Assembly (NCBI GenBank): GCA_000165345.1
Contig: CM000436.1
Coordinates: forward strand, 1,024,001-1,088,000
Length of the DNA: 64,000 bases
Direction: 5' to 3'
Position 1 is the first letter of the stretch. Each line of letters starts with the position of its first letter. The position numbers and the translations under genes were made by a program. Of this stretch, positions 2,319-58,194 are shown piece after piece. Below the pieces are notes generated by a model. That model had not been told where the DNA came from and did not search any database. It saw nothing but the letters and a program-made list of their open reading frames with translations.

Positions 2319-4463
2319 ATGGGGAGTGGAAGAAAAAGAATAAAAGTAGAAGAAAATGAGAAATCAATTGAAGTTGATAAAGAATTAAATCCATGGAACA
2401 ATGATAAACCATATTCAAATAAATATTATGAATTAAGAAAATTCAGAAAATCTCTTCCAGCTTGGTCAGAAAGAAAAACTTTCTGTAAATTAGTAAAAAA
2501 GAACCAAGTTGTGATTTTAGTTGGAGATACTGGTAGTGGAAAAACAACGCAATGCCCACAATTTATATTAGAATCTGGATTAGGAGGAAATTTAAAGATT
2601 GCATGTACTCAACCACGTAGAGTGGCGGCAATGAGTGTAGCTCAGAGAGTTTCAGAAGAAATGGATGTTTGTTTAGGTGATATTGTTGGATATACAATTA
2701 GATTTGAAGATAAGACAAATGAAAATACGAGACTTAAGTATGTAACAGATGGAATGTTACTTAGAGAAGCAATGTATGATAATGATTTATCTCAATATGG
2801 AGTAATTATTATTGATGAAGCACATGAGAGAACAATCTCAACAGATATTTTAATGGGATCGCTTAAAGAAATATTACTAAGAAGAAATTTTGAATCAAAA
2901 AATCCTTTAAGATTAGTAGTAATGAGTGCAACATTAGAATCAACAAAATTTCAAAGTTATTTTGGTAATGATTCACCAGTTTTTTCAATTCCAGGAAGAA
3001 TGTTCCCTGTTGAATTAATATATAATATAAAACCAGAAAAAGACTATTTAGAAGCATCAATACAAAAAGTACTTGATATACATGAGAATGAAGCACCAGG
3101 TGATATATTATTATTTTTAACAGGAGAAGAGGAAATAGAGCAGGCAAAACAACGTCTAGAATTTTTAAGTTCACCTTTAGAAGAACAATTTGGTGAATTA
3201 GTAATAATACCATTATATTCATCATTACCTCCATATAAACAACAGAAAATATTTGATAAAACTCCAGGACCAAAATATCCTGGTGGTCCTACAGGACGTA
3301 AAGTTGTAATAAGTACAAATATTGCAGAAACTAGTGTTACAATTGATGGAATAGTTTATGTAATAGATCCAGGATTTTCAAAACAAAAAGTATATAATCC
3401 CCGTACAAGAGTAGAATCATTACTCGTTTCACCAATATCAAAAGCTTCAGCAAAACAAAGAATGGGAAGAGCTGGTCGTACAAGAGAAGGTAAATGTTTT
3501 AGATTATATACTAAAGAAGCTTTTGAATCAGAATTGGCAGATCAAACACATCCTGAAATATTAAGAAGTAATTTAAGTAATGTTGTATTAATTTTAAAAA
3601 GTTTAGGTATTAATGATTTAGTTCATTTTGACTTTATGGATCCTCCAGCACCTGAAACTTTAATGAGAGCTCTTGAACAGCTTTATTTTTTAGAGGCAAT
3701 GGATGATGAAGGAGAACTAACTAAATTGGGAAAACTTATGACGGAATTTCCAATTGATCCTCAATTGGCTAGAATGTTAATAAAGTCATCAGAATTAGGA
3801 TGTGCTTCTCAGATATTATCTTTAGCAAGTTTATTAAATGTACCAAATATATTCTTAAGACCAAGAGATAAATCAAAAGAAGCTGATTATGCAAAATCTA
3901 GTTTTGTTGATCCAGATGGGGATCATTTAACTTTGTTATATGCATTTGAGTCTTTTAGAGAAGTATTATACAAGGATGAGAATAAAGCAAAAAAATTTGC
4001 AAAGGAGAATTTCTTGAATTATAGAGCACTAATTTCAGCAGAAAATGTAAGAAAACAGCTTGAAAGAACTTATCAAAAACATATACTTAATACAGGTAAT
4101 CATATTAATTCTGATAATGATCAAATTTCAGAATCAAAACTTAATATTTCTATTAGAAAAGCAATTACCCAGGGATTCTTCATGCAAGCAGCTTGTTTAC
4201 ATAGGTCTGGGCATTATACTACAGTTAGAGATAATCAAGTAGTACATCTTCATCCAAGTTGTGTTTTAAGTTCAAAACCAGAATGGGTATTATATAATGA
4301 GTTTGTTCTGACTTCTAGAAATTTTATCAGAACAGTAACTAAGATTAGAGGTGAATGGTTACTTGAGATTTCTCCAAAATACTATAATCTTGAAGATTTC
4401 CCGGAATGTGATTCTAAGAAGAAGCTTGCTCATCTTAATTATTTTTCTAATAAAAAATTCTAA
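2319..4463 (+). CDS. PRP43: DEAH-box ATP-dependent RNA helicase, Prp43/DHX15-like
   Basis: 714 aa. Walker A GDTGSGKTTQ, DEAH box IIIDEAHERT, SAT motif, QRMGRAGRTREGKCFRLYT motif VI, then HA2/OB C-terminal region. A short N-terminus before the helicase core favours Prp43 over Prp2/16/22. Confidence 0.88.
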   Translation: MGSGRKRIKVEENEKSIEVDKELNPWNNDKPYSNKYYELRKFRKSLPAWSERKTFCKLVKKNQVVILVGDTGSGKTTQCPQFILESGLGGNLKIACTQPRRVAAMSVAQRVSEEMDVCLGDIVGYTIRFEDKTNENTRLKYVTDGMLLREAMYDNDLSQYGVIIIDEAHERTISTDILMGSLKEILLRRNFESKNPLRLVVMSATLESTKFQSYFGNDSPVFSIPGRMFPVELIYNIKPEKDYLEASIQKVLDIHENEAPGDILLFLTGEEEIEQAKQRLEFLSSPLEEQFGELVIIPLYSSLPPYKQQKIFDKTPGPKYPGGPTGRKVVISTNIAETSVTIDGIVYVIDPGFSKQKVYNPRTRVESLLVSPISKASAKQRMGRAGRTREGKCFRLYTKEAFESELADQTHPEILRSNLSNVVLILKSLGINDLVHFDFMDPPAPETLMRALEQLYFLEAMDDEGELTKLGKLMTEFPIDPQLARMLIKSSELGCASQILSLASLLNVPNIFLRPRDKSKEADYAKSSFVDPDGDHLTLLYAFESFREVLYKDENKAKKFAKENFLNYRALISAENVRKQLERTYQKHILNTGNHINSDNDQISESKLNISIRKAITQGFFMQAACLHRSGHYTTVRDNQVVHLHPSCVLSSKPEWVLYNEFVLTSRNFIRTVTKIRGEWLLEISPKYYNLEDFPECDSKKKLAHLNYFSNKKF

Positions 4464-4878
4464 TGAACATGAATAAGTTATTTTTGTTATAAAATATTAC
4501 TAGAATTAAAAAGAATTGCCTTTTTCTCTTTATTTTAAATATATTGTTTAATATATTACGTGTCAATAATTTATTTATCACACATATTCATTAAAATAAT
4601 TATGCATCAATAGGTTTGGCGCTCTATAAGCATAATAATATATCATACCTTTTAATAGTTTTATTTTTTTCATTAAAACTTACTTCATTTTATTGTTTCA
4701 TCTTTTTTTCATTATTTCATTAATTCTTTCTTTCTCTCCTTAATATATATTAAAGAAAGATTAAATTTTCCTTCTACTATAATAAATATTTTTTATTTTT
4801 CAATCTATTCAAAATCTTTATCTACTAACACAACGCACTATTGCAATTAAAAAATATACATTTATAGAATACAACTGG

Positions 4879-4890
4879 TTTGGCGCCAAA
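4879..4890. promoter_or_regulatory. palindromic E2F-like site TTTGGCGCCAAA in a convergent 3'-3' spacer
   Basis: Exact 12-bp palindrome. A second half-site TTTGGCGC lies at 4615-4622. A TGCATGCA cluster lies at 4959-4984 and a G-box GGGAGGGGCAGGG at 5007-5019. No annotated gene begins here. Confidence 0.45.
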
Positions 4891-5492
4891 GACTATTTGC
4901 ATTTCTTTTCCTCCAGTCTATTTTATACCTGTAACAATTCAATTAGAATATTTCCTTACATGCATGCAAGTATATGCATGCATTTATGTGGACCAAAAAA
5001 TACACGTGGGAGGGGCAGGGAAAAGTTTGAAAGCAGAAAAGGTAAATTAAATATATAATTAATGAAAGTTAGATTTTAGGATTTTTTTTCACTTTTTTTT
5101 AAATCATTTTCATTTAACGCAAATAAAAAATATTAATTTAAAAACGTAGAAAAGATAAATATTTTAGTTACTTGAATTATACAAGAATATTTACAAATTG
5201 TAAATATGTGAGTATATAATCTTGTATAAAACACAAATCAATGAGTTTGTGAAAAATTATTTTTTTTAATTTGATACTGTGGATATTAACTTTTCTTATG
5301 TTGGATTAAAATTATAAGTTATAGTATGAACAGTGAAGGGAAATATCATCTTTTTGCCTTTTTTCTGTTTTGTTTTTTTAGCGTTTCTAAAATGACCATT
5401 ACTTTAGCAGTATTAAAATAATAGTATATCCTGTCGTAAACAATTTTTAAATAAAGCATAATCAACGTTTTCTTATTCACTTATTTCAATTA

Positions 5493-7298
5493 CTATTGTA
5501 CTCCAGGATATCTTCTTATACCAGGAGGGGGAGGCGGAGGAGGAGGAGGTGGAGGCGCAGCTCCTCCCAAAGAAGCACCGAAAGGTGAACCAGTATTCAT
5601 GGGTGAAGATTGCACTGGATTATTTCCTCCCATCATTGGTGGAATAGAAGTTGGGGCAGAATAAGAAGATGATGACGGAGGTAGTGGTGGTGGTGGCAAT
5701 GTAGAGGAAACTGTTTTTGGAAACCCTGAACCAGAAATGGCATCTCCTCCTGACATATATGATGAGCTTGGTCTGGGAGCTTGTGGGAATAATCCTTGCT
5801 GAGGTTTTGGAGGAGGTGGACTTGTTACAAACTGTGAATTCAAAGCCTGTGAGGGAGGAGATATTGCTGGAGAAGAGGCAGTTACCAGAGGAGCTTTTGG
5901 CATTGGAGGAACCGTTGGCATTGGAGGAGCTGCTGGCATTGGAGGAGCTGCTGGCATTGGAGGAGCTGTTGGCATTGAAGGAGCTGCTGGCATTGGAGGA
6001 GCTGCTGGCATTGAAGGAGCTGCTGGCATTGGAGGAGCTGCTGGCATTGGAGCTGCTGGTATTGAAGGAGCTGCTGGCATTGAAGGAGCTGCTGGCATTG
6101 GATGGAGAGGGGACTTTTGAGAATGAAGACCTTGTTCTGATGGAGAAAAGGCCTGGCCAAAGTGGTGCTGGCCATTGGCAGACAATAGTGGAGGAGAAGA
6201 AGAGGAGCTCTCGCCCTTAAATTGAAATTGGCTTGGAGTCTGGGCTCCAATAGTTCCAGAATTTTGTCCCCCCTGTTCTTGGAGAGAGGGCTCCTGAGTC
6301 GGATGTTGATTATTCATTGCAGATTGGAAGTCATTACTGAGCTCAGAGCCAATATGTTGTTGTTGTTGCTGGTGTTGTTCGTTTCCTGATATATTGGTAA
6401 GAACCTCCCATTTACCTTCCGAGTTTTCTCTAAAGAGAGTAACAACATCCTCTCCACTAGAAGCAGCTAAAACTGTTCCTGTTACACTCCAAGATACCCT
6501 CCAGACTGGCTCATTAAAGTTAAGTACTTGGCTACTATGCCAACCTTGTCCATCAGCATCTTGAGTCCAAATGACTACAATTTTATCATCACCGCAAGAA
6601 GCAATAGTCTCAGCAAGAAGATCTACAGATGGTCTCCAAGCAACATCTCTTACCCACTCAGAGTGAGCAACATCCAAAGTCTGATTCATCTCAGAAAGCT
6701 CCTTTGTTTGTGGATCCTGCTTCCAGATACGTATCTGGTTATCACACCCTCCAGAAACAAGTCTTATAGTTTGGGAAGATGGATTTGACGGTGAATTACC
6801 TACAGAGTTAGTTGCTGGAGCCCAAGATACTGAATTTGCTCCATTTGGGTGTCCAAATACCTGCTTCTTTGTCCAGCTCCTAGTTTCTGGACTATATGAA
6901 CAAACAGCTACCGAACCATCCGAAATAGCACAGGCAAATTGAAGCCCAAAATCCCATGGACACCAACAAACACCATTAATTGAAGATAAAAAATCATCAC
7001 AAGAGTAAACAATTTCCCATCTTGATCTTTGAGTTTCTTTCCAAACTAGAACCTTCTTATCATATGAACAAGAAGCTAATACACTCCCAAATGTGGGGTG
7101 AGCCCAACAAACCTGCCAAACTGGCCCTTCGTGACCTCTTAATTCTGCCAAGAAAGTTGGCTGATCCGTAGAGACATCAAATATTCTTATTGTGTGATCT
7201 GATGATGCTGTTGCCAGTCTACGGCCATAATAATCTAATTGTGTGTCATGCACTGGACCAGTATGGCCAGTATCAAAAGTTCCAATAACTTCCGCCAT
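5493..7298 (-). CDS. SEC13: Sec13 (COPII / nuclear pore WD40 protein) with about 300-aa Pro/Ala/Met-rich C-terminal extension
   Basis: The N-terminal 300 aa align along their length with Sec13 (LDYYGRRLATASSDHTIRIFDV, LRGHEGPVWQVCWAHPTFGSVLASCSYDKKVLVWKE, SGGCDNQIRIWK, WVRDVAWRPSV, VTLFRENSEGKWEV). The C-terminal half is low-complexity PMPAAPS repeats and a poly-Pro stretch. Confidence 0.85.
   Translation of the reverse strand: MAEVIGTFDTGHTGPVHDTQLDYYGRRLATASSDHTIRIFDVSTDQPTFLAELRGHEGPVWQVCWAHPTFGSVLASCSYDKKVLVWKETQRSRWEIVYSCDDFLSSINGVCWCPWDFGLQFACAISDGSVAVCSYSPETRSWTKKQVFGHPNGANSVSWAPATNSVGNSPSNPSSQTIRLVSGGCDNQIRIWKQDPQTKELSEMNQTLDVAHSEWVRDVAWRPSVDLLAETIASCGDDKIVVIWTQDADGQGWHSSQVLNFNEPVWRVSWSVTGTVLAASSGEDVVTLFRENSEGKWEVLTNISGNEQHQQQQQHIGSELSNDFQSAMNNQHPTQEPSLQEQGGQNSGTIGAQTPSQFQFKGESSSSSPPLLSANGQHHFGQAFSPSEQGLHSQKSPLHPMPAAPSMPAAPSIPAAPMPAAPPMPAAPSMPAAPPMPAAPSMPTAPPMPAAPPMPAAPPMPTVPPMPKAPLVTASSPAISPPSQALNSQFVTSPPPPKPQQGLFPQAPRPSSSYMSGGDAISGSGFPKTVSSTLPPPPLPPSSSSYSAPTSIPPMMGGNNPVQSSPMNTGSPFGASLGGAAPPPPPPPPPPPGIRRYPGVQ
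5882..6110. repeat. 18-bp tandem repeat (GCTGCTGGCATTGGAGGA)x~13, coding (PAAPSM hexapeptide) inside Sec13 tail
   Basis: Near-perfect 18-nt periodicity is visible directly. It produces spurious long ORFs in other frames on both strands. Confidence 0.9.
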
Positions 7299-15477: not shown

Positions 15478-18775
<3,298 letters not shown>

Positions 18776-18894: not shown

Positions 18895-20993
18895 TTATTT
18901 TTTAAATGTTTGTGGTAGAAAGGGATCTCTAATTCCAGTATTAGGATTAGTAGGAGTAGGATTGATTCCGNTTCCAGAAGTTGTATGATGAGGATTAACT
19001 CTGACTCCTGAAATAATGGGAGTAGGGTTCATACTCATCATATCAGGAGTGGGTGTAGTAGGATGAGGATTGATTCTGATTCCTGAAACAATTGGAGGAG
19101 GATTAACTCCAGTTCTGGGAGTTTTGGAAGGACTAATTCTGATACCAGAAGCAAAAGACTGGGGATTGGTCCCAGTACCGGAAGTGGTTGTAGGATGAGG
19201 GTTGACTCCAATTTTGGGGATTGTGGAAGGACTAACTCTAACACCTGATGCATAGTTTTGAGGATTTGTTCCGAGTTCAGAAGTAGGTATAGTAGGAGGA
19301 TGAACTCCAATTCCAGGGGCTGTGGGCGGAGTGGCTCTGACACCTGAGGCTGTTGGTGGAGTGACTCTGACACCTAAGGCAAAGGACTGGGGATTGATTC
19401 CAGTGCCGGGAGTGGCCGTAGGGTGGTGACTCACTCTGACTCCAGGAATAGATGTGGGAGGGTTTATTCCAACGCTTGAAGTGACAATGGGAGGATTCGC
19501 TCCAGTTCTGGGAATGACTGTAGTTTGGGGGCTCGCTTTGACTCCAGGAGTGGGTTTGGGAAGAAGATTGATTCCAGTTTCAGAAGCGACTGTAGAAGGG
19601 TTTACTCCAATTCCAGGTGCGACTGTAGGAGAATTCACTCCAATTCTAGGGGAAATTTGAGGGTTCANTCCAACTCCAGAAACGACTTGAGGGTTCACTC
19701 CGATTCCAGTAGTAATTTGAGGGTTCACTCCGANTCCAGAAGCAATTTGAGGGTTTACTCCAGTTCCAGAAACAACTTGAGGGCTAATTCCAGCTCCAGG
19801 AGTAATTTGAGGGTTCACTCCGATTCCAGTAGTAATTTGAGGGTTAATTCCAACTCCAGGAGTAATTTGAGGGTTCACTCCAATTCCAGAAACTACTTGA
19901 GGGTTTACTCCAATTCCAGGAGCAATTTGAGGGTTAGTTCCAATTCCAGTAGTAATTTGAGGGTTCACTCCGATTCCAGAAGCAACTTGAGAGTTTACTC
20001 CAATTCTAGGGGAAATTTGAGGGTTTACTCCAGTTCCAGGTGCGACTGTAGGAGGATTCNNTCCAACTCCAGNANNNNNTTGAGGGTTTACNNNAACTCC
20101 NGAAACNACTTGAGGGNTNANTCCANCTCCAGNANNNANTTGAGNGTTNACTCCNANTCCAGTNNTAANTNNANNNNNAANNCCNACTCCTANNNNTAAT
20201 TNNNNGNTTCANTNNGAATTNCANTANTAANNNNAGNGTTCACTNNNANTCCAGNANCTTCTGCTAAAGATGAAGATGGATTATTTTTATTAGTATTTGG
20301 TTGTTTCTGAATATAATAAGGATGTGAAATAATATTTCTACTAGTTGTTGTAATATTTGAATTCATATTTGAACTTATCTGAGAAGAAGAAGATAATGAT
20401 GAATTTATTATACCTGTTGGAACATTAAGATTACTTGAAATCATGTTATTTTTAACTTGTATTTGATTACCAATCAAATTCTGTAAATAATTTTGTTGTA
20501 ATTGCTCTAATTGTGATTTATTAATTTGTGAATTAATTACCATAGAAGATACTCCTTCATTCATATTATTCATCATCATCAAATTAGAATGACAAATATT
20601 TGAATTATCAACTTGGATAAATTGTTTCTCAAGTCTTTTCGATTCTATTTCTCCTTGTTCCTGTTCCACTTCTTTTACTCCATTTGTTTGTGTTCCAGTT
20701 ATTCCAATTCCTTGATTATAAATAATTGAAAATCTCTTCACATGTTCTGTGAATAATTCTTGTATTAATTTAAAATCTCTCTCTATCAATTTTAAACTTG
20801 TAAATATTTCATCTCTTGGCTTATTTTTTAATTCCTTCAATTTCTCTTTTAATTGCATTAATGGTGTAATATTTGTATTTAAAGAAGATAAAAGTCCATT
20901 CTCATTTTTATGATAGTTAATATTATTATTATCACTCTTATTAATCGTCTTATTTAATGTATCTCTACGTACCTTTTCTTCCCTTCTAATCAT
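18895..20993 (-). CDS. repeat protein: Q/N-rich N-terminal region followed by >25 tandem decapeptide repeats G(I/V)G(V/I)NPQ(I/V)(T/V)(T/S)
   Basis: Track ORFs 20190..20993 and 18895..19968 share frame and strand. They are separated only by an N-rich collapsed repeat region. No signal peptide. The C-terminal part is imperfect repeats. Confidence 0.5.
19600..20260. repeat. 30-bp tandem repeat array (coding), with ambiguous bases
   Basis: Units such as CCAGTTCCAGAAACAACTTGAGGGTTTACT repeat head-to-tail. Ns from 20060 to 20250 show the assembler could not resolve copy number. Confidence 0.85.
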
Positions 20994-21394: not shown

Positions 21395-21535
21395 GTATGT
21401 ATTATTATTAGTAATAGTAATAGCAATAGCAATAGCAATAGTAATAGCAATAGTAATACTAATATTAATACTAATACTACTACTAATAATAATAATAGTA
21501 ATAATAATAGTAATAATAATAAGTAATATTAATAT
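21395..21535. repeat. imperfect AAT/AGT/AGC hexa- and trinucleotide microsatellite
   Basis: (AGTAAT/AGCAAT)n then (AATAATAGT)n. Intergenic. Confidence 0.8.
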
Positions 21536-22240
21536 AATCGTGATATAATTAATGATATCGTTATAATGATTTAAAAATTTTCAAGAATTAAATTTAAAAA
21601 ATGAAAAAAATAAAAATCTATATAAATTAAAATACGCTATATATAAGCAAACAATTGAAAGCATGCTTTGAGTCGAGATTTCTTTAAAATGACAAATAAA
21701 TCATTGTATTAATGATTTTTTTGTTCATAACAAGTTATTTCGTATTAAGTACTGCAATAAAAAATTATTAATAGTTGATTGGAAAAGATTATCTACTTTA
21801 TCAACATATTGTAGGTAGTCTTACCAGTTATTCTATGATTAATAAACGTGATCGTTGGTAACTTTTGATTTAATTGAGAATTTCTCATTTCCCTTATTGA
21901 CTAAAAAGTTACTTCTATTGCACGCTTACATTATACAAAATAAATTAAATGACTTATTATTATTATTATTATTATTACATTCAATTTATGATTCCAGAGA
22001 AAATCAGCATTCTATTTGTCACGTCTTTTGTTCAAATATTGTTTAGGTTTTAGTTATGCTATTACTTATTCAATATTATTTAATTCTTTCAAATACTTAT
22101 TGGCGTATACCCAAGAATGCTATACTAATTATTATACTTCAAGATTATATACTTCTTCCTTTAATTAGGAAGTAGAAAGAATTGCTTTCTAGTAATCTCT
22201 TTCTTGTTATCTTGAAACACATTTTCTTTTTTTCTCTTCT

Positions 22241-47638: not shown

Positions 47639-48544
47639 TTACTCCTTCTTCTTAATAGGTCTATAAACCCCAATAACTACAGCATGATCTCTATGATAAG
47701 GTTCAAGAGTAAGCTGTTCCTTTGGTTTACATTTTTCGGCTCTTAGTTTATCTATTTCAGATGCAAAAACAGCCTCTGGTTTTGCAGTAGAATCTACGCA
47801 ACTTGCCTTAATAGATATTATAAAGTATCCATTATTCTTAAGGAAAAGATGAGCATTTAAAGCTACTATACGAGCTTGGTCAGGCTGGGCAACATCAGAA
47901 AAGATAACATCGACCATTGGAACAAGCATTCTATACTTTTGAGGAGTTCTTGCATCCTCTACAATAGGAACAATATTCTGACGTCTTTTAGCCATATCTG
48001 TCAAATCTCTTCCAGATCTGTGACTAAACTCTACAGCATAAACACTACCTTCCGGGCCGACCATATCTGATACATGAGAAACTGTTGTTCCATTAGCTGC
48101 TCCCAAGTATAATACCTTTGCTCCTGGTTTAATTGGCATATTAGCAACACCTCCAATAATAGTTGCTCCCAACTTCGATCTAAATGGATTCCAAACACGG
48201 TATTCAATCTTTTCATTAGTCTCAGGATCTGTTGTCTCTACTCTTTTTTCACCATAAATTGAAACACCTGGTACCATATTTCTGGTTACTAATGCATCAC
48301 TCTTACCTTTTGCCATAAAAACACCTTCATGTCTGTGAGGAACAATTATTACTTTTGACCCTCCCTTCATTCCTCCACCTCCTCCTCTACCTCCTTTACC
48401 TCCACCTCTTCCTCTACCTCCACCTGGACTTCTTCCTCCTCCACCTCGGCCTCCACCCGGACTTCTACCTCCACCTCCTCTTCCTCCACCTCTCCCTCCT
48501 CCACCTCGGCCTCTTCCTCCAAATGGACTGCCTCTTGAACTCAT
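47639..48544 (-). CDS. NOP1: fibrillarin (Nop1), box C/D snoRNP 2'-O-methyltransferase
   Basis: N-terminal GAR domain ([13 protein letters not shown]...). The methyltransferase core aligns throughout with fibrillarin ([66 protein letters not shown]). Confidence 0.95.
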
Positions 48545-55191: not shown

Positions 55192-58100
55192 ATGGCTAAA
55201 AATAATGGAATAAAAGATCTGAGTTCAGCTTTTAATGTAGTAAAGTATNANNAGNAAGATCCTCATTTGAAAGTAATAAAGAGTAGAAATTCTAGTAAAA
55301 TAGAAAATTCATTAGATAAGAGAAAAGATAAATTGGGATTTAACGATCGTGATTTCCTTGAAAGAAAGAGGTCTATACTTAAAGAGTTATATTCAGAGGG
55401 AAGGAAGAGTGAATTTAATGATGAGAGAGAGAAGTTTGCTTTAAGAAAAGATTCTATTGGAGATAATTATCAGACTTTAATAGCTACTAAGCAATTAAAG
55501 AAGAAAGTTAAGAAGAGAAAGAATAACTTTAATTTGGACGAAGAAGAAGATGATGATAATGATTATAGAGGACATTCTGGTGAAAATTTAAATAATACTA
55601 GTACTAATGATTTAGAATTCACTCATCAAGGAAAATCTATTTCAGCCTTGGATGATAAGGCTATTCGTAAATATGATGGTAATATAGATGAGGATAATGA
55701 TTTCGATGATAATGATTATACTGGTAGCCGTAAAGGAGATAGTATTTTAGATGAGAAGAATATGCCAGGTTTTTTCTTTGGACAAGGAAATTCAGATGGA
55801 ACTTCTACTAAGTCTAGACAGGAGATATTTAAAGAAATTATGCAAAAGAGTAAGCTTGCAAAGATGGAGATGAAGAGACATAGAGAAAGTCTAGAGGAGG
55901 AGTTGGTTAATTTAGATAGTGCATTTTCTCAAGTTCAATCAATGCTTAGTTATAAACAGTCAAGAAAAGACAGAGTCAATTCTTTACTGAATAATATTAA
56001 TTCTAATTCTTCTGTTACTGATAATAATGGTAATGATAATAATATTCAGTCATCTGACAAGAATATTGAAGAATTGGATGAATATGAACAACTCAGAAAT
56101 CTTCTAAAGTTTGATACAAGAACTGGTGTTTCTGATAGAATTAAAACTGATGAAGAAATTGCAAAACTTAATGCTGAAAAACTTGAGAGGCTTGAAAAGG
56201 AGAGAAAAGAAAGAATGAATCTTGATGATTCCAATATTGACATTGACTTGAGTACTGAATCGGAAAATGAGTACTTTAAGGACGACTTTGATGATGAAGA
56301 TGGTGAAGAAGAGGACGGCTTTGAAGATGAAGAAGAAGATGAAGAAGAGGAAGAAGAAGAGGAAGAAGAAGAGGAGGAGGAAGAGGAGGAAGAAGAGGAG
56401 GAAGAAGAGGAGGAAGAAGAGGAAGATGAGGGACGGAAAGTAGAAAAGGACTGCTTTGAAGAGGAAGAAGAAGATGGGGAGGGGGAAGAAGAGGACGGTG
56501 AGGATGATGAGGAGAGAGTGAAACCCGCATCTAAAGGATTCATTGATTTCGAATTAAATGAAATTGATGAAATTGATTGGTTGGTGAACGATGAATCTGA
56601 ACCAAATTTACCATTTAGTGTTAATTTGAAGAAAATCTTGAAGGAATATAGTTTGAAGGGACTTATGGAATTTATGAATGGATTTTCTCCAAAATCTCAA
56701 TGGAAATTTATTTGCAGATTTAGATCATGCTTTAATAAGGGAGATACTGCAATGTTGAATGACTTAAAACTTCTTATTGGTTTTCTTATTAAATATCCAT
56801 TAAATTGTCTAAGAACAGCAGAATCAGATTCTGAAAAGAAGAATATTTTTCAATTTATTATTAATTATCTTAAGCTTATGAGTAGTCATTTATTATTTAT
56901 GGCAGAAACTGATCCAAAAGAATGCCTTATCATTTTCACTTACTTTACATTTGAAATTTGTCATACAACATTTCCAAGTGTTTATCACAAATATAAAAAA
57001 GTTGAAAAGTTTTTAAATGATAATCTTTTAAATGTAGAAAATGAAAACTATTATACTGAAATATTAGAAGAATGTCCATCTTTATACCAACTTTCTGAAG
57101 ATATATATGAACTGACTTTAGAACATATTGTGATATGTAGAATGATGTTTATATTATTCCCAGTTACTGATGCTCAACATCCAATATTAACTCCAGTTAT
57201 TATATGCTTGGAACAATGGGCTCACAGATGGAGTCAAGTTGGGAAATCTTTACTAAACACTAACACACCAGATCAAGATAGTGAAGAGTTTAAATACAAC
57301 CAAATAAGGCTTGTTGGGGGTAGTAACCCAAATATTAGTTGCATGATTGGAGTAATCTGTCTATTGGAGATATCTAGTATTGGTTATGCAAATAGTAAAT
57401 CAAATAATAATGGTAATGAATTGCTTGAAAGATTTAGTATTGGTTACTTTACTTTATCATTAAGTTGCCTTAAATGGCTGTTATTGTCTGATCCTGATAA
57501 TAATATTTCCATTGAAGAAAAAAGAATTTCATTATCAATAGGAATTCTTAAATCTTTAATTAGAGTAATTTCTGCTTTTAAAGATTTACAAGGGTTCCAT
57601 GCTATTATTATTCATCTTATCCGTGAAAATATCAAACAAATTAATGAATCATTAATGAAGATGGATAATTGTAAAGTATTGTTAAATTTGGTTTCTGAAA
57701 TTGAATCGATCTCTACAGAAATTGCCAATAGACCTCAAAAACCAATTAGTCTTTGTCCAAGACAAACTCCAACAATTAGATCTTTGATTCCCAAAATTGA
57801 TGATCCATCTGTTCCATTTGCTGCAAAAGCTATGCTTAGAGCCAAACATGGTCCCAAAGAATCCCAATATGAACATGAAAAGAAACATTATTTGTCTAGA
57901 TTGAAAAAAGAAGTCAATACTGCTAGAAGACAAGCCAGTAGACAACTTAGAAAAGATTCACAAGTGATTGCAAGTGCATGGCATGAAAATAGAACGGAAA
58001 AATCCAATAAACAAAATGCCAAGTATAATTCCTTCATGAAGATGTTAGAAGACGACCAAGCTGAATATAAGAGGATGAAGACTACAGGTGGAACCATGGA

Positions 58101-58194
58101 TACTTCAATTCAATCTTATAGAGCCAATAAACAAAACAAGAAGAAGAATCAAAAGATGGCTGGTAATAAAACTGCCAATGGTCTTGTCCACTAG
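55192..58194 (+). CDS. NOP14: Nop14 (Utp2)-like nucleolar SSU-processome protein with poly-Glu tract
   Basis: IKTDEEIAKLNAEKLERLEKERKERM and the C-terminal LIPKIDDP...LSRLKKEV..RQLRKDSQVIA match conserved Nop14 blocks (RTKTEEEKAKEEAERL..LEAERLRRM; FIPKFEENFNP...LRELRKDSRFLA). A 26-residue E-run is encoded by a GAA/GAG repeat at 56330-56450. Ambiguous bases at 55249-55255. Confidence 0.6.
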   Translation: MAKNNGIKDLSSAFNVVKYXXXDPHLKVIKSRNSSKIENSLDKRKDKLGFNDRDFLERKRSILKELYSEGRKSEFNDEREKFALRKDSIGDNYQTLIATKQLKKKVKKRKNNFNLDEEEDDDNDYRGHSGENLNNTSTNDLEFTHQGKSISALDDKAIRKYDGNIDEDNDFDDNDYTGSRKGDSILDEKNMPGFFFGQGNSDGTSTKSRQEIFKEIMQKSKLAKMEMKRHRESLEEELVNLDSAFSQVQSMLSYKQSRKDRVNSLLNNINSNSSVTDNNGNDNNIQSSDKNIEELDEYEQLRNLLKFDTRTGVSDRIKTDEEIAKLNAEKLERLEKERKERMNLDDSNIDIDLSTESENEYFKDDFDDEDGEEEDGFEDEEEDEEEEEEEEEEEEEEEEEEEEEEEEEEEEDEGRKVEKDCFEEEEEDGEGEEEDGEDDEERVKPASKGFIDFELNEIDEIDWLVNDESEPNLPFSVNLKKILKEYSLKGLMEFMNGFSPKSQWKFICRFRSCFNKGDTAMLNDLKLLIGFLIKYPLNCLRTAESDSEKKNIFQFIINYLKLMSSHLLFMAETDPKECLIIFTYFTFEICHTTFPSVYHKYKKVEKFLNDNLLNVENENYYTEILEECPSLYQLSEDIYELTLEHIVICRMMFILFPVTDAQHPILTPVIICLEQWAHRWSQVGKSLLNTNTPDQDSEEFKYNQIRLVGGSNPNISCMIGVICLLEISSIGYANSKSNNNGNELLERFSIGYFTLSLSCLKWLLLSDPDNNISIEEKRISLSIGILKSLIRVISAFKDLQGFHAIIIHLIRENIKQINESLMKMDNCKVLLNLVSEIESISTEIANRPQKPISLCPRQTPTIRSLIPKIDDPSVPFAAKAMLRAKHGPKESQYEHEKKHYLSRLKKEVNTARRQASRQLRKDSQVIASAWHENRTEKSNKQNAKYNSFMKMLEDDQAEYKRMKTTGGTMDTSIQSYRANKQNKKKNQKMAGNKTANGLVH

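Follow-up and report, generated by a model that had tools for sequence, protein, structure and literature searches.

The proline-rich C-terminal tail of Cryptosporidium SEC13: a polymorphic coding minisatellite and an invariant terminal motif

The SEC13 gene and its propeller

The window analyzed here, a 64-kb stretch of DNA whose positions lie on chromosome 8 of Cryptosporidium parvum, carries SEC13 as a single uninterrupted reading frame in the list of open reading frames and translations (Table 1). Three C. parvum chromosome 8 assemblies give the same 601-amino-acid (aa) product, and GCA_035232765.1 is 100% identical to the window across 7,093 bp. The gene is probably cgd8_4110, a name deduced from the numbering of its neighbors. 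Look-up in a protein collection gave no exact match to the protein, which was found in a gene index, and the presumed gene identifiers and the assembly and chromosome accessions gave no match in the literature. Antisense open reading frames over the repeat array, such as the one listed in Table 1, were considered as genes and rejected as by-products of the repeat. In the C. canis record, an equivalent antisense frame over the array has been miscalled as a gene.

Table 1. Features of the SEC13 locus, in window positions
Feature	Positions	Strand	Residues (aa)	Basis and details
Complete SEC13 coding sequence	5493..7298	-	1-601	Single exon; ATG 7296-7298, TAG 5493-5495
SEC13 WD40 beta-propeller	6384..7298	-	1-305	phmmer against PDB, WD40 Pfam matches, AlphaFold2
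Proximal tail, polar, Gln-rich	6108..6383	-	~306-397	Translation; QHQQQQQH at ~6354-6377
In-frame minisatellite	5888..6107	-	~398-471	Tandem Repeats Finder: 18 bp x 12.3 copies
Distal tail, Ser/Pro-rich	5556..5887	-	~472-581	Translation
Terminal module, P11 then GIRRYPGVQ	5496..5555	-	582-601	8-species alignment
Antisense open reading frame, LLALEE repeats	5717..6220	+		Overlaps array; open reading frame list

The first-pass annotation, made from the letters of the window, had described a Sec13 body continuing into about 300 aa of low-complexity, proline-rich sequence. That division stands within the one 601-aa frame, with a propeller at aa 1 to 305 and a tail at aa 306 to 601, and we regard the identity as SEC13 and the anatomy of both parts as practically certain. 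SEC13 is a beta-propeller shared by the COPII outer coat, the nuclear-pore Y-complex, and SEA/GATOR2; its open six-bladed fold takes up a further blade from Sec31, Nup145C, or Sec16. Residues 1 to 305 align end to end with solved SEC13 structures in a phmmer search against the PDB (best E value, 9.6e-90; Xenopus and human SEC13, ~1e-89), while matches to the paralogue SEH1 are much weaker (best E values, 1.5e-40 and ~1e-33). AlphaFold2 models this region with pLDDT above 90 throughout and predicts 24 beta-strands, or six four-stranded blades, and aa 1 to 305 are a canonical six-bladed SEC13 propeller. Its protein sequence is 100% identical among C. parvum, C. hominis, and C. tyzzeri.

Anatomy and variation of the tail

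The 296-aa tail is 25% Pro (74 residues), 15% Ser, and 11% Ala, and Trp is absent from the tail of every Cryptosporidium species examined. There are only two FG dipeptides. Charge is balanced, with eight Lys plus Arg against eight Asp plus Glu, and the sole notable cluster is an Arg-Arg pair beside the terminal proline run. PPP-type motifs (PPPn, PPAP, or PAPP under the definition of PMC7594496) number three in the window allele and 6 to 14 in the other Cryptosporidium species that we examined. AlphaFold2 gives the tail a pLDDT mostly below 55, with a 7-residue poly-Q helix at aa 307 to 313 as its only secondary structure and no helix or strand beyond it, and the tail is therefore predicted to be disordered. 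When the tail by itself was used to look for homologues, 8,000 candidates came up, all of them low-complexity proteins, none of which scored. G+C content is 0.50 to 0.57 across the tail, compared with ~0.42 in the propeller and ~0.2 in the flanks.

The segments on either side of the array are loosely conserved, each with 6% of its columns invariant in an alignment of eight species spanning Cryptosporidium. In the proximal tail, pLDDT is below 50 outside the short helix, and poly-Q length varies from Q5 in the window to Q6 in Japanese short-read isolates and C. hominis and Q4 in C. tyzzeri. The distal tail contains two PPPP motifs (aa 494 to 497 and 535 to 538), and a block, SPPSQ..NSQF..SPPPPKPQQGLFPQ.PRPSS, is kept within the intestinal clade.

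The array between them is the second-strongest tandem array that Tandem Repeats Finder reports within the window (89% matches; score, 333), and the features of tail and array lie far outside chance expectation. On the coding strand the unit is CCAGCAGCTCCTCCAATG, translated as PAAPPM or PAAPSM; the array comprises eleven such 6-aa PAAP[P/S]M units plus a single 5-aa one. The first-pass annotation thus had the 18-bp unit right, with about 12 copies in place of its roughly 13. Copy number differs by assembly within species, at 11.8 or 10.7 units in C. parvum and 12, 13, or 17 in C. hominis, with 18 units in C. tyzzeri and 10 in C. meleagridis. SEC13 alleles are accordingly 601 or 594 aa long in C. 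parvum and 602, 602, 608, and 633 aa in C. hominis, some of these lengths coming from short-read assemblies, in which repeats may collapse; such collapse may account in part for the 602- and 633-aa C. hominis lengths. Allele differences include one 21-bp and one 3-bp indel, both in frame. Between lineages the repeat unit itself changes, to 18, 21 plus 15, 72, or 24 bp, all multiples of 3.

Because its unit is 10 bp or longer and its copy number differs among isolates of one species, the array is a polymorphic coding minisatellite (variable-number tandem repeat [VNTR]). It resembles the minisatellites used for Cryptosporidium subtyping, such as the gp60 serine repeat and published VNTR loci, in being in frame and varying in copy number among isolates or species. 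Unlike such loci, it was not found in the literature: a search with the repeat unit on both strands and in several rotations found no paper using or listing it. Short-read assemblies break inside this 220-bp near-perfect array, another difference from the subtyping loci. Its variable length makes the array a candidate marker, though one poorly suited to short reads. Length polymorphism among isolates bears out the variability expected in the first-pass annotation, but its terms "hypervariable" and "useful for strain typing" exceed data from few alleles, some of them from short reads.

Several lines of comparison show that the tail is coding sequence and neither an intron nor an artefact. All 12 alleles or orthologues, from nine Cryptosporidium taxa, are one open frame, their length differences are all multiples of 3, and each taxon has a tail of 240 to 440 aa, in keeping with the first-pass view that no intron removes the repeat; nor did the comparison turn up an orthologue that lacks the tail. 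The ratio dN/dS in the tail is 0.24 to 0.57, which is below 1 although higher than the 0.01 to 0.13 of the propeller, and tail dN is 4 to 20 times propeller dN. An untranslated tail, whether through an intron, a frameshifted pseudo-extension, or assembly error, would find its support in deposited models that end early: 339 aa in C. canis, with a predicted intron, 439 aa in C. meleagridis, and 488 aa in C. hominis TU502. However, the C. canis and C. meleagridis DNA holds the full frame to the terminal peptide PPPPGIRRYPG[V/I]Q, which the deposited models miss, and every indel keeps frame; an intron is rejected because introns would conserve neither reading frame nor terminal peptide. TU502 is the exception, as a frameshift within the array gives QCQQLL repeats, which is what the +1 frame of the array reads, and hence the 488-aa model. 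Five further assemblies, from C. hominis and C. tyzzeri, show no such break, so that the artefact reading is effectively refuted, and the guess of Kehrer et al. (PMC6062611) that sequencing error lay behind the C. hominis model is confirmed.

The tail ends in its one strongly conserved element. The proline run is P11 (aa 582 to 592), not the P13 first counted, and the core PPPPGIRRYPG[V/I]Q, the last 13 residues (5496-5534), is invariant across the genus. In the eight-species alignment, 18 of the 20 residues of the terminal module (90%) are invariant, compared with 74% of propeller columns and 4 to 6% of those in the remaining tail. The motif is absent from the SEC13 tails of Toxoplasma, Neospora, Plasmodium, Cardiosporidium, and Cyanidium that we compared. 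The genus-invariant PPPPGI at aa 589 to 594 fits, as a sequence match only, the PPG-hydrophobic (not Trp) ligand consensus documented for Smy2/GIGYF-type GYF domains (PMC10187677), and Smy2p has been linked to COPII (PMC2239301). P(n)-GIRRYPG[V/I]Q might be an undescribed Cryptosporidium-specific linear motif that recruits a partner to SEC13, with the array tuning the reach and avidity of the arm, a suggestion we consider unlikely. Candidate partners would include the gelsolin domain of Sec23 and domains that bind polyproline, whether of the GYF type or another.

Relation to known extensions and possible roles

A tail on SEC13 is not itself new. Kehrer et al. (2018, Sci Rep 8:11249, PMC6062611) described a poly-proline extension of apicomplexan SEC13, naming C. 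parvum and C. muris, so that the observation made from the window is correct but had been published, and the tail is no unusual discovery. In that work, on PbSEC13 (PBANKA_1445400) and TgSEC13 (TGGT1_201700), attempts to obtain an extension-less P. berghei mutant failed, the P. falciparum tail could replace the P. berghei extension even though the two align poorly, SEC13 lay in COPII-like extranuclear foci, and PfSEC13 copurified SEC31, SEC23, and SEC24b; the extension was compared with the proline-rich domain of SEC31. The C. parvum tail is an extension of this apicomplexan type, disordered, proline rich, and C terminal: it shares the layout of six WD blades followed directly after the sixth by about 300 disordered, proline-rich residues, and its 74 Pro residues fall within the published range of 73 to 115 (PMC6062611). 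Plasmodium, Neospora, Toxoplasma, and one red alga have tails of similar length with two to six PPP-type motifs, and tails are also present in coccidia and Cardiosporidium. Queries from one apicomplexan group rank low against another, and Plasmodium and Toxoplasma SEC13 were not among the best 120 matches listed in our protein search. SEC13 tails of other protists differ in composition, being Gln and Glu rich. With the tail already published and its loss unobtainable in P. berghei, the window does not contribute a novel type of feature; the invariant Cryptosporidium terminus, the in-frame minisatellite, the lineage-specific repeat units, and the allelic length variation are absent from the Kehrer description.

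We infer that the tail may affect COPII or the nuclear pore. Its likeliest role would be that of a flexible, multivalent polyproline-II docking arm borne by the SEC13-SEC31 outer coat. Such an arm would add proline-motif contacts to the inner COPII coat, given that in both yeast and human the gelsolin domain of Sec23 is bound by PPP motifs. The array would then be a spacer or a source of avidity that tolerates changes in length and sequence, and the invariant terminal motif would be the sole sequence-specific ligand of the tail. Like the tail, the disordered Sec31 domain (yeast Sec31 749-1174; human SEC31A) is long and proline rich, contains PPP-type motifs, and is carried by the same outer-coat heterotetramer. 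The yeast domain acts via PPP motifs, charge, and length, and unrelated PPP-rich disordered regions substitute for it (PMC7594496). This tolerance of sequence replacement fits a SEC13 tail that keeps its composition through sequence turnover, and the turnover of repeat units with composition kept supports a mechanism in which composition and motifs matter and sequence does not.

The likeness to Sec31 has limits. In Sec31, the proline-rich domain binds Sec23 and connects the inner with the outer coat, it has clusters of net positive charge with no net negative charge, and its active fragment inserts a Trp-Asn pair at the Sar1-Sec23 interface. The SEC13 tail lacks this fragment, by which the Sec31 domain acts on Sar1 GTP hydrolysis, and differs further in residing on SEC13 and, in the C. 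parvum allele, in having few PPP motifs and no net positive charge; the comparison, drawn in the first-pass annotation and in the literature alike (PMC6062611), holds for proline richness and not for the active fragment. The positive-cluster feature is weak in C. parvum because there are only three PPP-type motifs and zero net charge. Plasmodium SEC31 retains its own proline-rich domain, so a second on SEC13 is not obviously needed, and the terminal motif, absent outside Cryptosporidium, offers no explanation for a function common to Apicomplexa. Moreover, SEC13 is a component of the nuclear pore as well, where the tail could act instead. Taken alone, the multivalent COPII arm is thus a tentative mechanism, with the balance of probability against it. 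Identity and mechanism taken jointly come close to an even balance while staying slightly on the doubtful side, a judgment weighted towards the mechanism.

At the pore, the tail would give SEC13 a flexible segment for cohesion or linkage within the outer-ring (Y) complex, offsetting reduced or divergent apicomplexan scaffold nucleoporins or tethering chromatin or other nuclear factors. SEC13 is a nucleoporin, and linker nucleoporins use short motifs within disordered regions; even so, we think such a role unlikely. PfSEC13, likewise an apicomplexan SEC13 with a long C-terminal extension, was placed at pores and chromatin, with the proposal that it is a fusion of Sec13 and Nup145C (Dahan-Pasternak et al. 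2013, cited through PMC6062611). A fusion of this type was rejected for Cryptosporidium, as AlphaFold2 predicts no blade-insertion or helical ACE1 domain after the propeller, nor any Nup145C-like helix or beta element, and there is no Nup96/Nup145C Pfam match. An FG-nucleoporin or FG-linker reading was also rejected, the tail having only its two FG dipeptides where FG nucleoporins have many FG, GLFG, or FxFG repeats in a disordered region, and P. berghei sporozoite SEC13 departs from the FG-nucleoporin pattern (PMC6062611). Pull-downs of PfSEC13 gave COPII proteins, not nucleoporins (PMC6062611). A largely nonadaptive origin is about equally improbable. Here the tail would be low-complexity sequence expanded by tolerated replication slippage, with any selected role confined to spacing the terminal peptide or to general solubility or phase behavior. 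The wholesale replacement of the repeat unit between lineages, copy-number variation within species, the scarcity of invariant columns outside the terminal module, elevated dN with relaxed dN/dS, and the quite different composition of other protist tails all accord with slippage. Yet no Cryptosporidium that we examined lacks the tail, which also persists in Plasmodium, coccidia, and Cardiosporidium, its dN/dS is below 1, Pro content is kept despite sequence turnover, and the tail-less P. berghei mutant was unobtainable (PMC6062611).

What the locus adds to the 2018 description is small: an invariant terminal motif, turnover of the repeat unit, and several wrong gene models, those of C. canis, C. 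meleagridis, and C. hominis TU502, which are truncated and need correction. The invariant 13-residue terminus provides a precise target for mutagenesis in genetically tractable Cryptosporidium. If the reading of this terminus as a partner-recruiting motif is true, SEC13 would gain a contact of its own, direct and independent of SEC31, either in ER export or at the pore.

A SEC13 propeller with a disordered, proline-rich tail

SEC13 is encoded in the window by a single 601-codon open reading frame (ORF) with an ATG start and a TAG stop, and is probably cgd8_4110, judging from the locus tags of its C. meleagridis neighbors (cmbei_8004090 and cmbei_8004120). Residues 1 to 305 match solved SEC13 structures end to end (E values of 9.6e-90 for Xenopus and ~1e-88 for human SEC13), with the paralogue SEH1 matching at 1e-40 or worse, and a Pfam search of the 601-aa protein returned WD40 and beta-propeller models and no others. 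Chromosome 8 of GCA_035232765.1 is 100% identical to the window across 7,093 bp, three C. parvum assemblies encode the identical SEC13 protein, and six neighboring window proteins are identical to C. parvum proteins, strain Iowa II included. The gene order patatin, EF-hand, SEC13, and PRP43 helicase is kept across Cryptosporidium. The other window genes are housekeeping genes: PRP43, an RSE1/DDB1/CPSF1-family (CPSF_A) protein, Nop14, Kri1, fibrillarin, a UCH protease, and SKIP.

The presence of a tail after the propeller (aa 306 to 601) is confirmed. The first-pass annotation, which had proposed about 13 copies of a repeat and a terminal P13 run, described this tail accurately except that the array holds ~12 units and the proline run is P11 (aa 582 to 592). 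In the coding frame, the array reads as PAAP[P/S]M, with 11 six-residue units and one five-residue unit. Proline makes up 25% of the tail, serine 15%, and alanine 11%, and PPPP motifs lie at aa 494 to 497 and 535 to 538. AlphaFold2, run with a 66-sequence alignment, predicts the propeller confidently (pLDDT of >90, 24 strands) and gives the tail a pLDDT mostly below 55, without secondary structure save a seven-residue poly-Q helix.

The strongest tandem array of the window lies outside SEC13 and encodes a decapeptide repeat of the G-I-G-V-N-P-Q-I-T-P/T type. The window's 75 N characters are grouped into small clusters, most of them within or near this repeat, and appear as X residues in translations. 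The repeats of the fibrillarin-like and Nop14-like proteins are ordinary for their families, and the hexanucleotide microsatellite is a possible additional length marker.

Coordinates of repeats and related features in the window
Feature	Position	Strand	Description
SEC13 ORF	5493..7298	-	
Array in SEC13 tail	5888..6107		18-bp unit x 12.3, 89% matches, Tandem Repeats Finder (TRF) score 333
30-bp array	19634-20039		30 bp x 13.5, TRF score 441
ORF containing the 30-bp array	18895-19968	-	357 aa, Pro/Thr/Gly-rich
N runs within and beside the 30-bp array	19668-19734, 20060-20257		
Other N clusters	18546-18548, 18971, 55249-55255		
Low-complexity coding repeat, fibrillarin-like protein	48370-48513 (ORF 47639-48544)	-	RGG-rich N terminus
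Low-complexity coding repeat, Nop14-like protein	56279-56492 (ORF 55192-58194)	+	GAA-rich acidic stretch
Hexanucleotide microsatellite	21409-21549		TAGTAA x 23, AT-rich, between ORFs

Translation and turnover of the tail

The locus was recovered from nine Cryptosporidium taxa, via the SEC13 protein or its EF-hand neighbor. In all 12 coding sequences examined, the frame stays open between the SEC13 start and a stop codon and the length is divisible by 3, and every array period is likewise a multiple of 3 (18 bp in C. parvum, 21 and 15 bp in chipmunk genotype I, 72 bp in C. canis, and 24 bp in C. andersoni). Alleles of C. parvum have zero differences in the propeller; in the tail, they are set apart by a deletion of 21 bp and an insertion of CAA, both in frame, and by a few substitutions. 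Among eight species across the genus, 74% of propeller residues, 4 to 6% of the remaining tail, and 90% of the last 20 residues, PPPPPP.PPPPGIRRYPG[V/I]Q, are invariant. As neither an intron nor an untranslated region would keep the reading frame or this terminal peptide, both are rejected, including the intron across the repeat that the first-pass annotation had named as a refuting condition, and an artefactual tail is effectively excluded. The dN/dS ratios, 0.24 to 0.57 in the tail versus 0.01 to 0.13 in the propeller, indicate that constraint on the tail is relaxed, yet present.

Short deposited SEC13 models are annotation or sequencing errors. In C. canis (GCA_027243975.1; positions 3001-4908 of the recovered locus), the 339-aa model contains a spurious intron, with an antisense "gene" called over the tail, while the DNA holds a 635-aa ORF with the conserved motif at its end; in C. 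meleagridis (GCA_039657295.1; positions 788-2563 of the recovered locus), the model has 439 aa versus an ORF of 591 aa. The 2004 C. hominis TU502 assembly (GCF_000006425.1) carries a frameshift in the array, giving 13 copies of QCQQLL (the C. parvum unit read in the +1 frame) and a stop at 488 aa. The C. felis contig stops within the tail, and all 24 C. parvum short-read assemblies break within the array. The C. parvum Logan assemblies (runs DRR7292xx) all end in it at codon 431, these isolates having a Q6 rather than Q5 poly-Q stretch and an array start like that of the 594-aa allele; the sole Logan contig reached via the C. hominis/C. tyzzeri EF-hand neighbor, SRR29134127, ends in SEC13 at codon 411.

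The PAAP[P/S]M unit is common to C. parvum (601 and 594 aa; 11.8 and 10.7 units), C. hominis (602, 602, 608, and 633 aa; 12, 12, 13, and 17 units), C. tyzzeri (623 aa; 18 units), and C. meleagridis (591 aa; 10 units), with unrelated units instead in chipmunk genotype I, C. canis, and the gastric C. muris, C. andersoni, and C. serpentis. These differences in protein length and unit count among alleles mark the array as a real length-polymorphic coding minisatellite, although part of them may reflect short-read collapse, and the earlier term "hypervariable" goes beyond the allele data. A literature search found no paper on typing use of the array.

SEC13 tails elsewhere and a possible role in the COPII coat

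The tail is an already published finding, as Kehrer et al. explicitly name C. parvum, listing extensions in Plasmodium, Toxoplasma, Neospora, C. parvum, C. muris, and the red alga Cyanidioschyzon and likening them to the proline-rich part of SEC31 (PMC6062611). In P. berghei, deletion of the extension was not achieved, and it could be replaced by the poorly alignable P. falciparum tail (PMC6062611). Our survey agrees: among the SEC13 proteins recovered by an exhaustive propeller search, those of P. malariae (651 aa), P. relictum (754 aa), Neospora caninum (645 aa), and Cyanidium caldarium (584 aa) have long tails, with 10 to 29% Pro and three to six PPP-type motifs. Cardiosporidium SEC13 also has a tail; none is present in a Selenidium transcript or in a related sequence of 374 aa. 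Some protist SEC13s (P0207, P0238, and P0182) carry C-terminal tails of 150 to 250 aa in which Gln, Glu, and Trp abound instead of Pro, so disordered SEC13 extensions take more than one form and also occur outside Apicomplexa. The new points here are incremental: the invariant terminal motif, lineage-specific turnover of the repeat unit, allele lengths, and the mismodelled orthologues.

The disordered domain of yeast Sec31 binds the inner COPII coat by a Trp-Asn active fragment, charge, and PPP motifs, which use the Sec23 gelsolin domain as their docking site; each element is singly dispensable, and other, unrelated PPP-rich disordered regions can stand in for the entire domain, if long enough (PMC7594496). 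Such behavior fits the SEC13 tail, which keeps its length, proline content, and PPP motifs as its sequence turns over, and also fits the Plasmodium interspecies swap. We therefore favor the reading that the tail may be a flexible, multivalent proline arm of the SEC13-SEC31 outer coat, and the interpretation offered in the first-pass annotation is reasonable and in part supported.

Weighing against a COPII role are the lack of Trp in the tail, the low number of PPP motifs (three) and zero net charge of the C. parvum allele, the retention by Plasmodium SEC31 of its own proline-rich domain, and the confinement of the terminal motif to Cryptosporidium. Rival explanations are that the tail is a nuclear-pore linker, against which stand its mere two FG dipeptides and an AlphaFold2 model in which it shows no likeness to the helical Nup145C domain or to an inserted blade, or that it is a largely neutral low-complexity expansion around the conserved terminal peptide, for which the relaxation of constraint speaks and against which its persistence does. 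Within that peptide, PPPPGI fits, as a motif match only, the PPG-hydrophobic consensus of Smy2/GIGYF-type GYF domains (PMC10187677); in yeast, a link between Smy2p and COPII has been documented (PMC2239301). As a proline arm of the outer coat, the tail would add contacts to Sec23/24; the array would act as a spacer or contribute avidity, and the invariant terminus would be a specific ligand.
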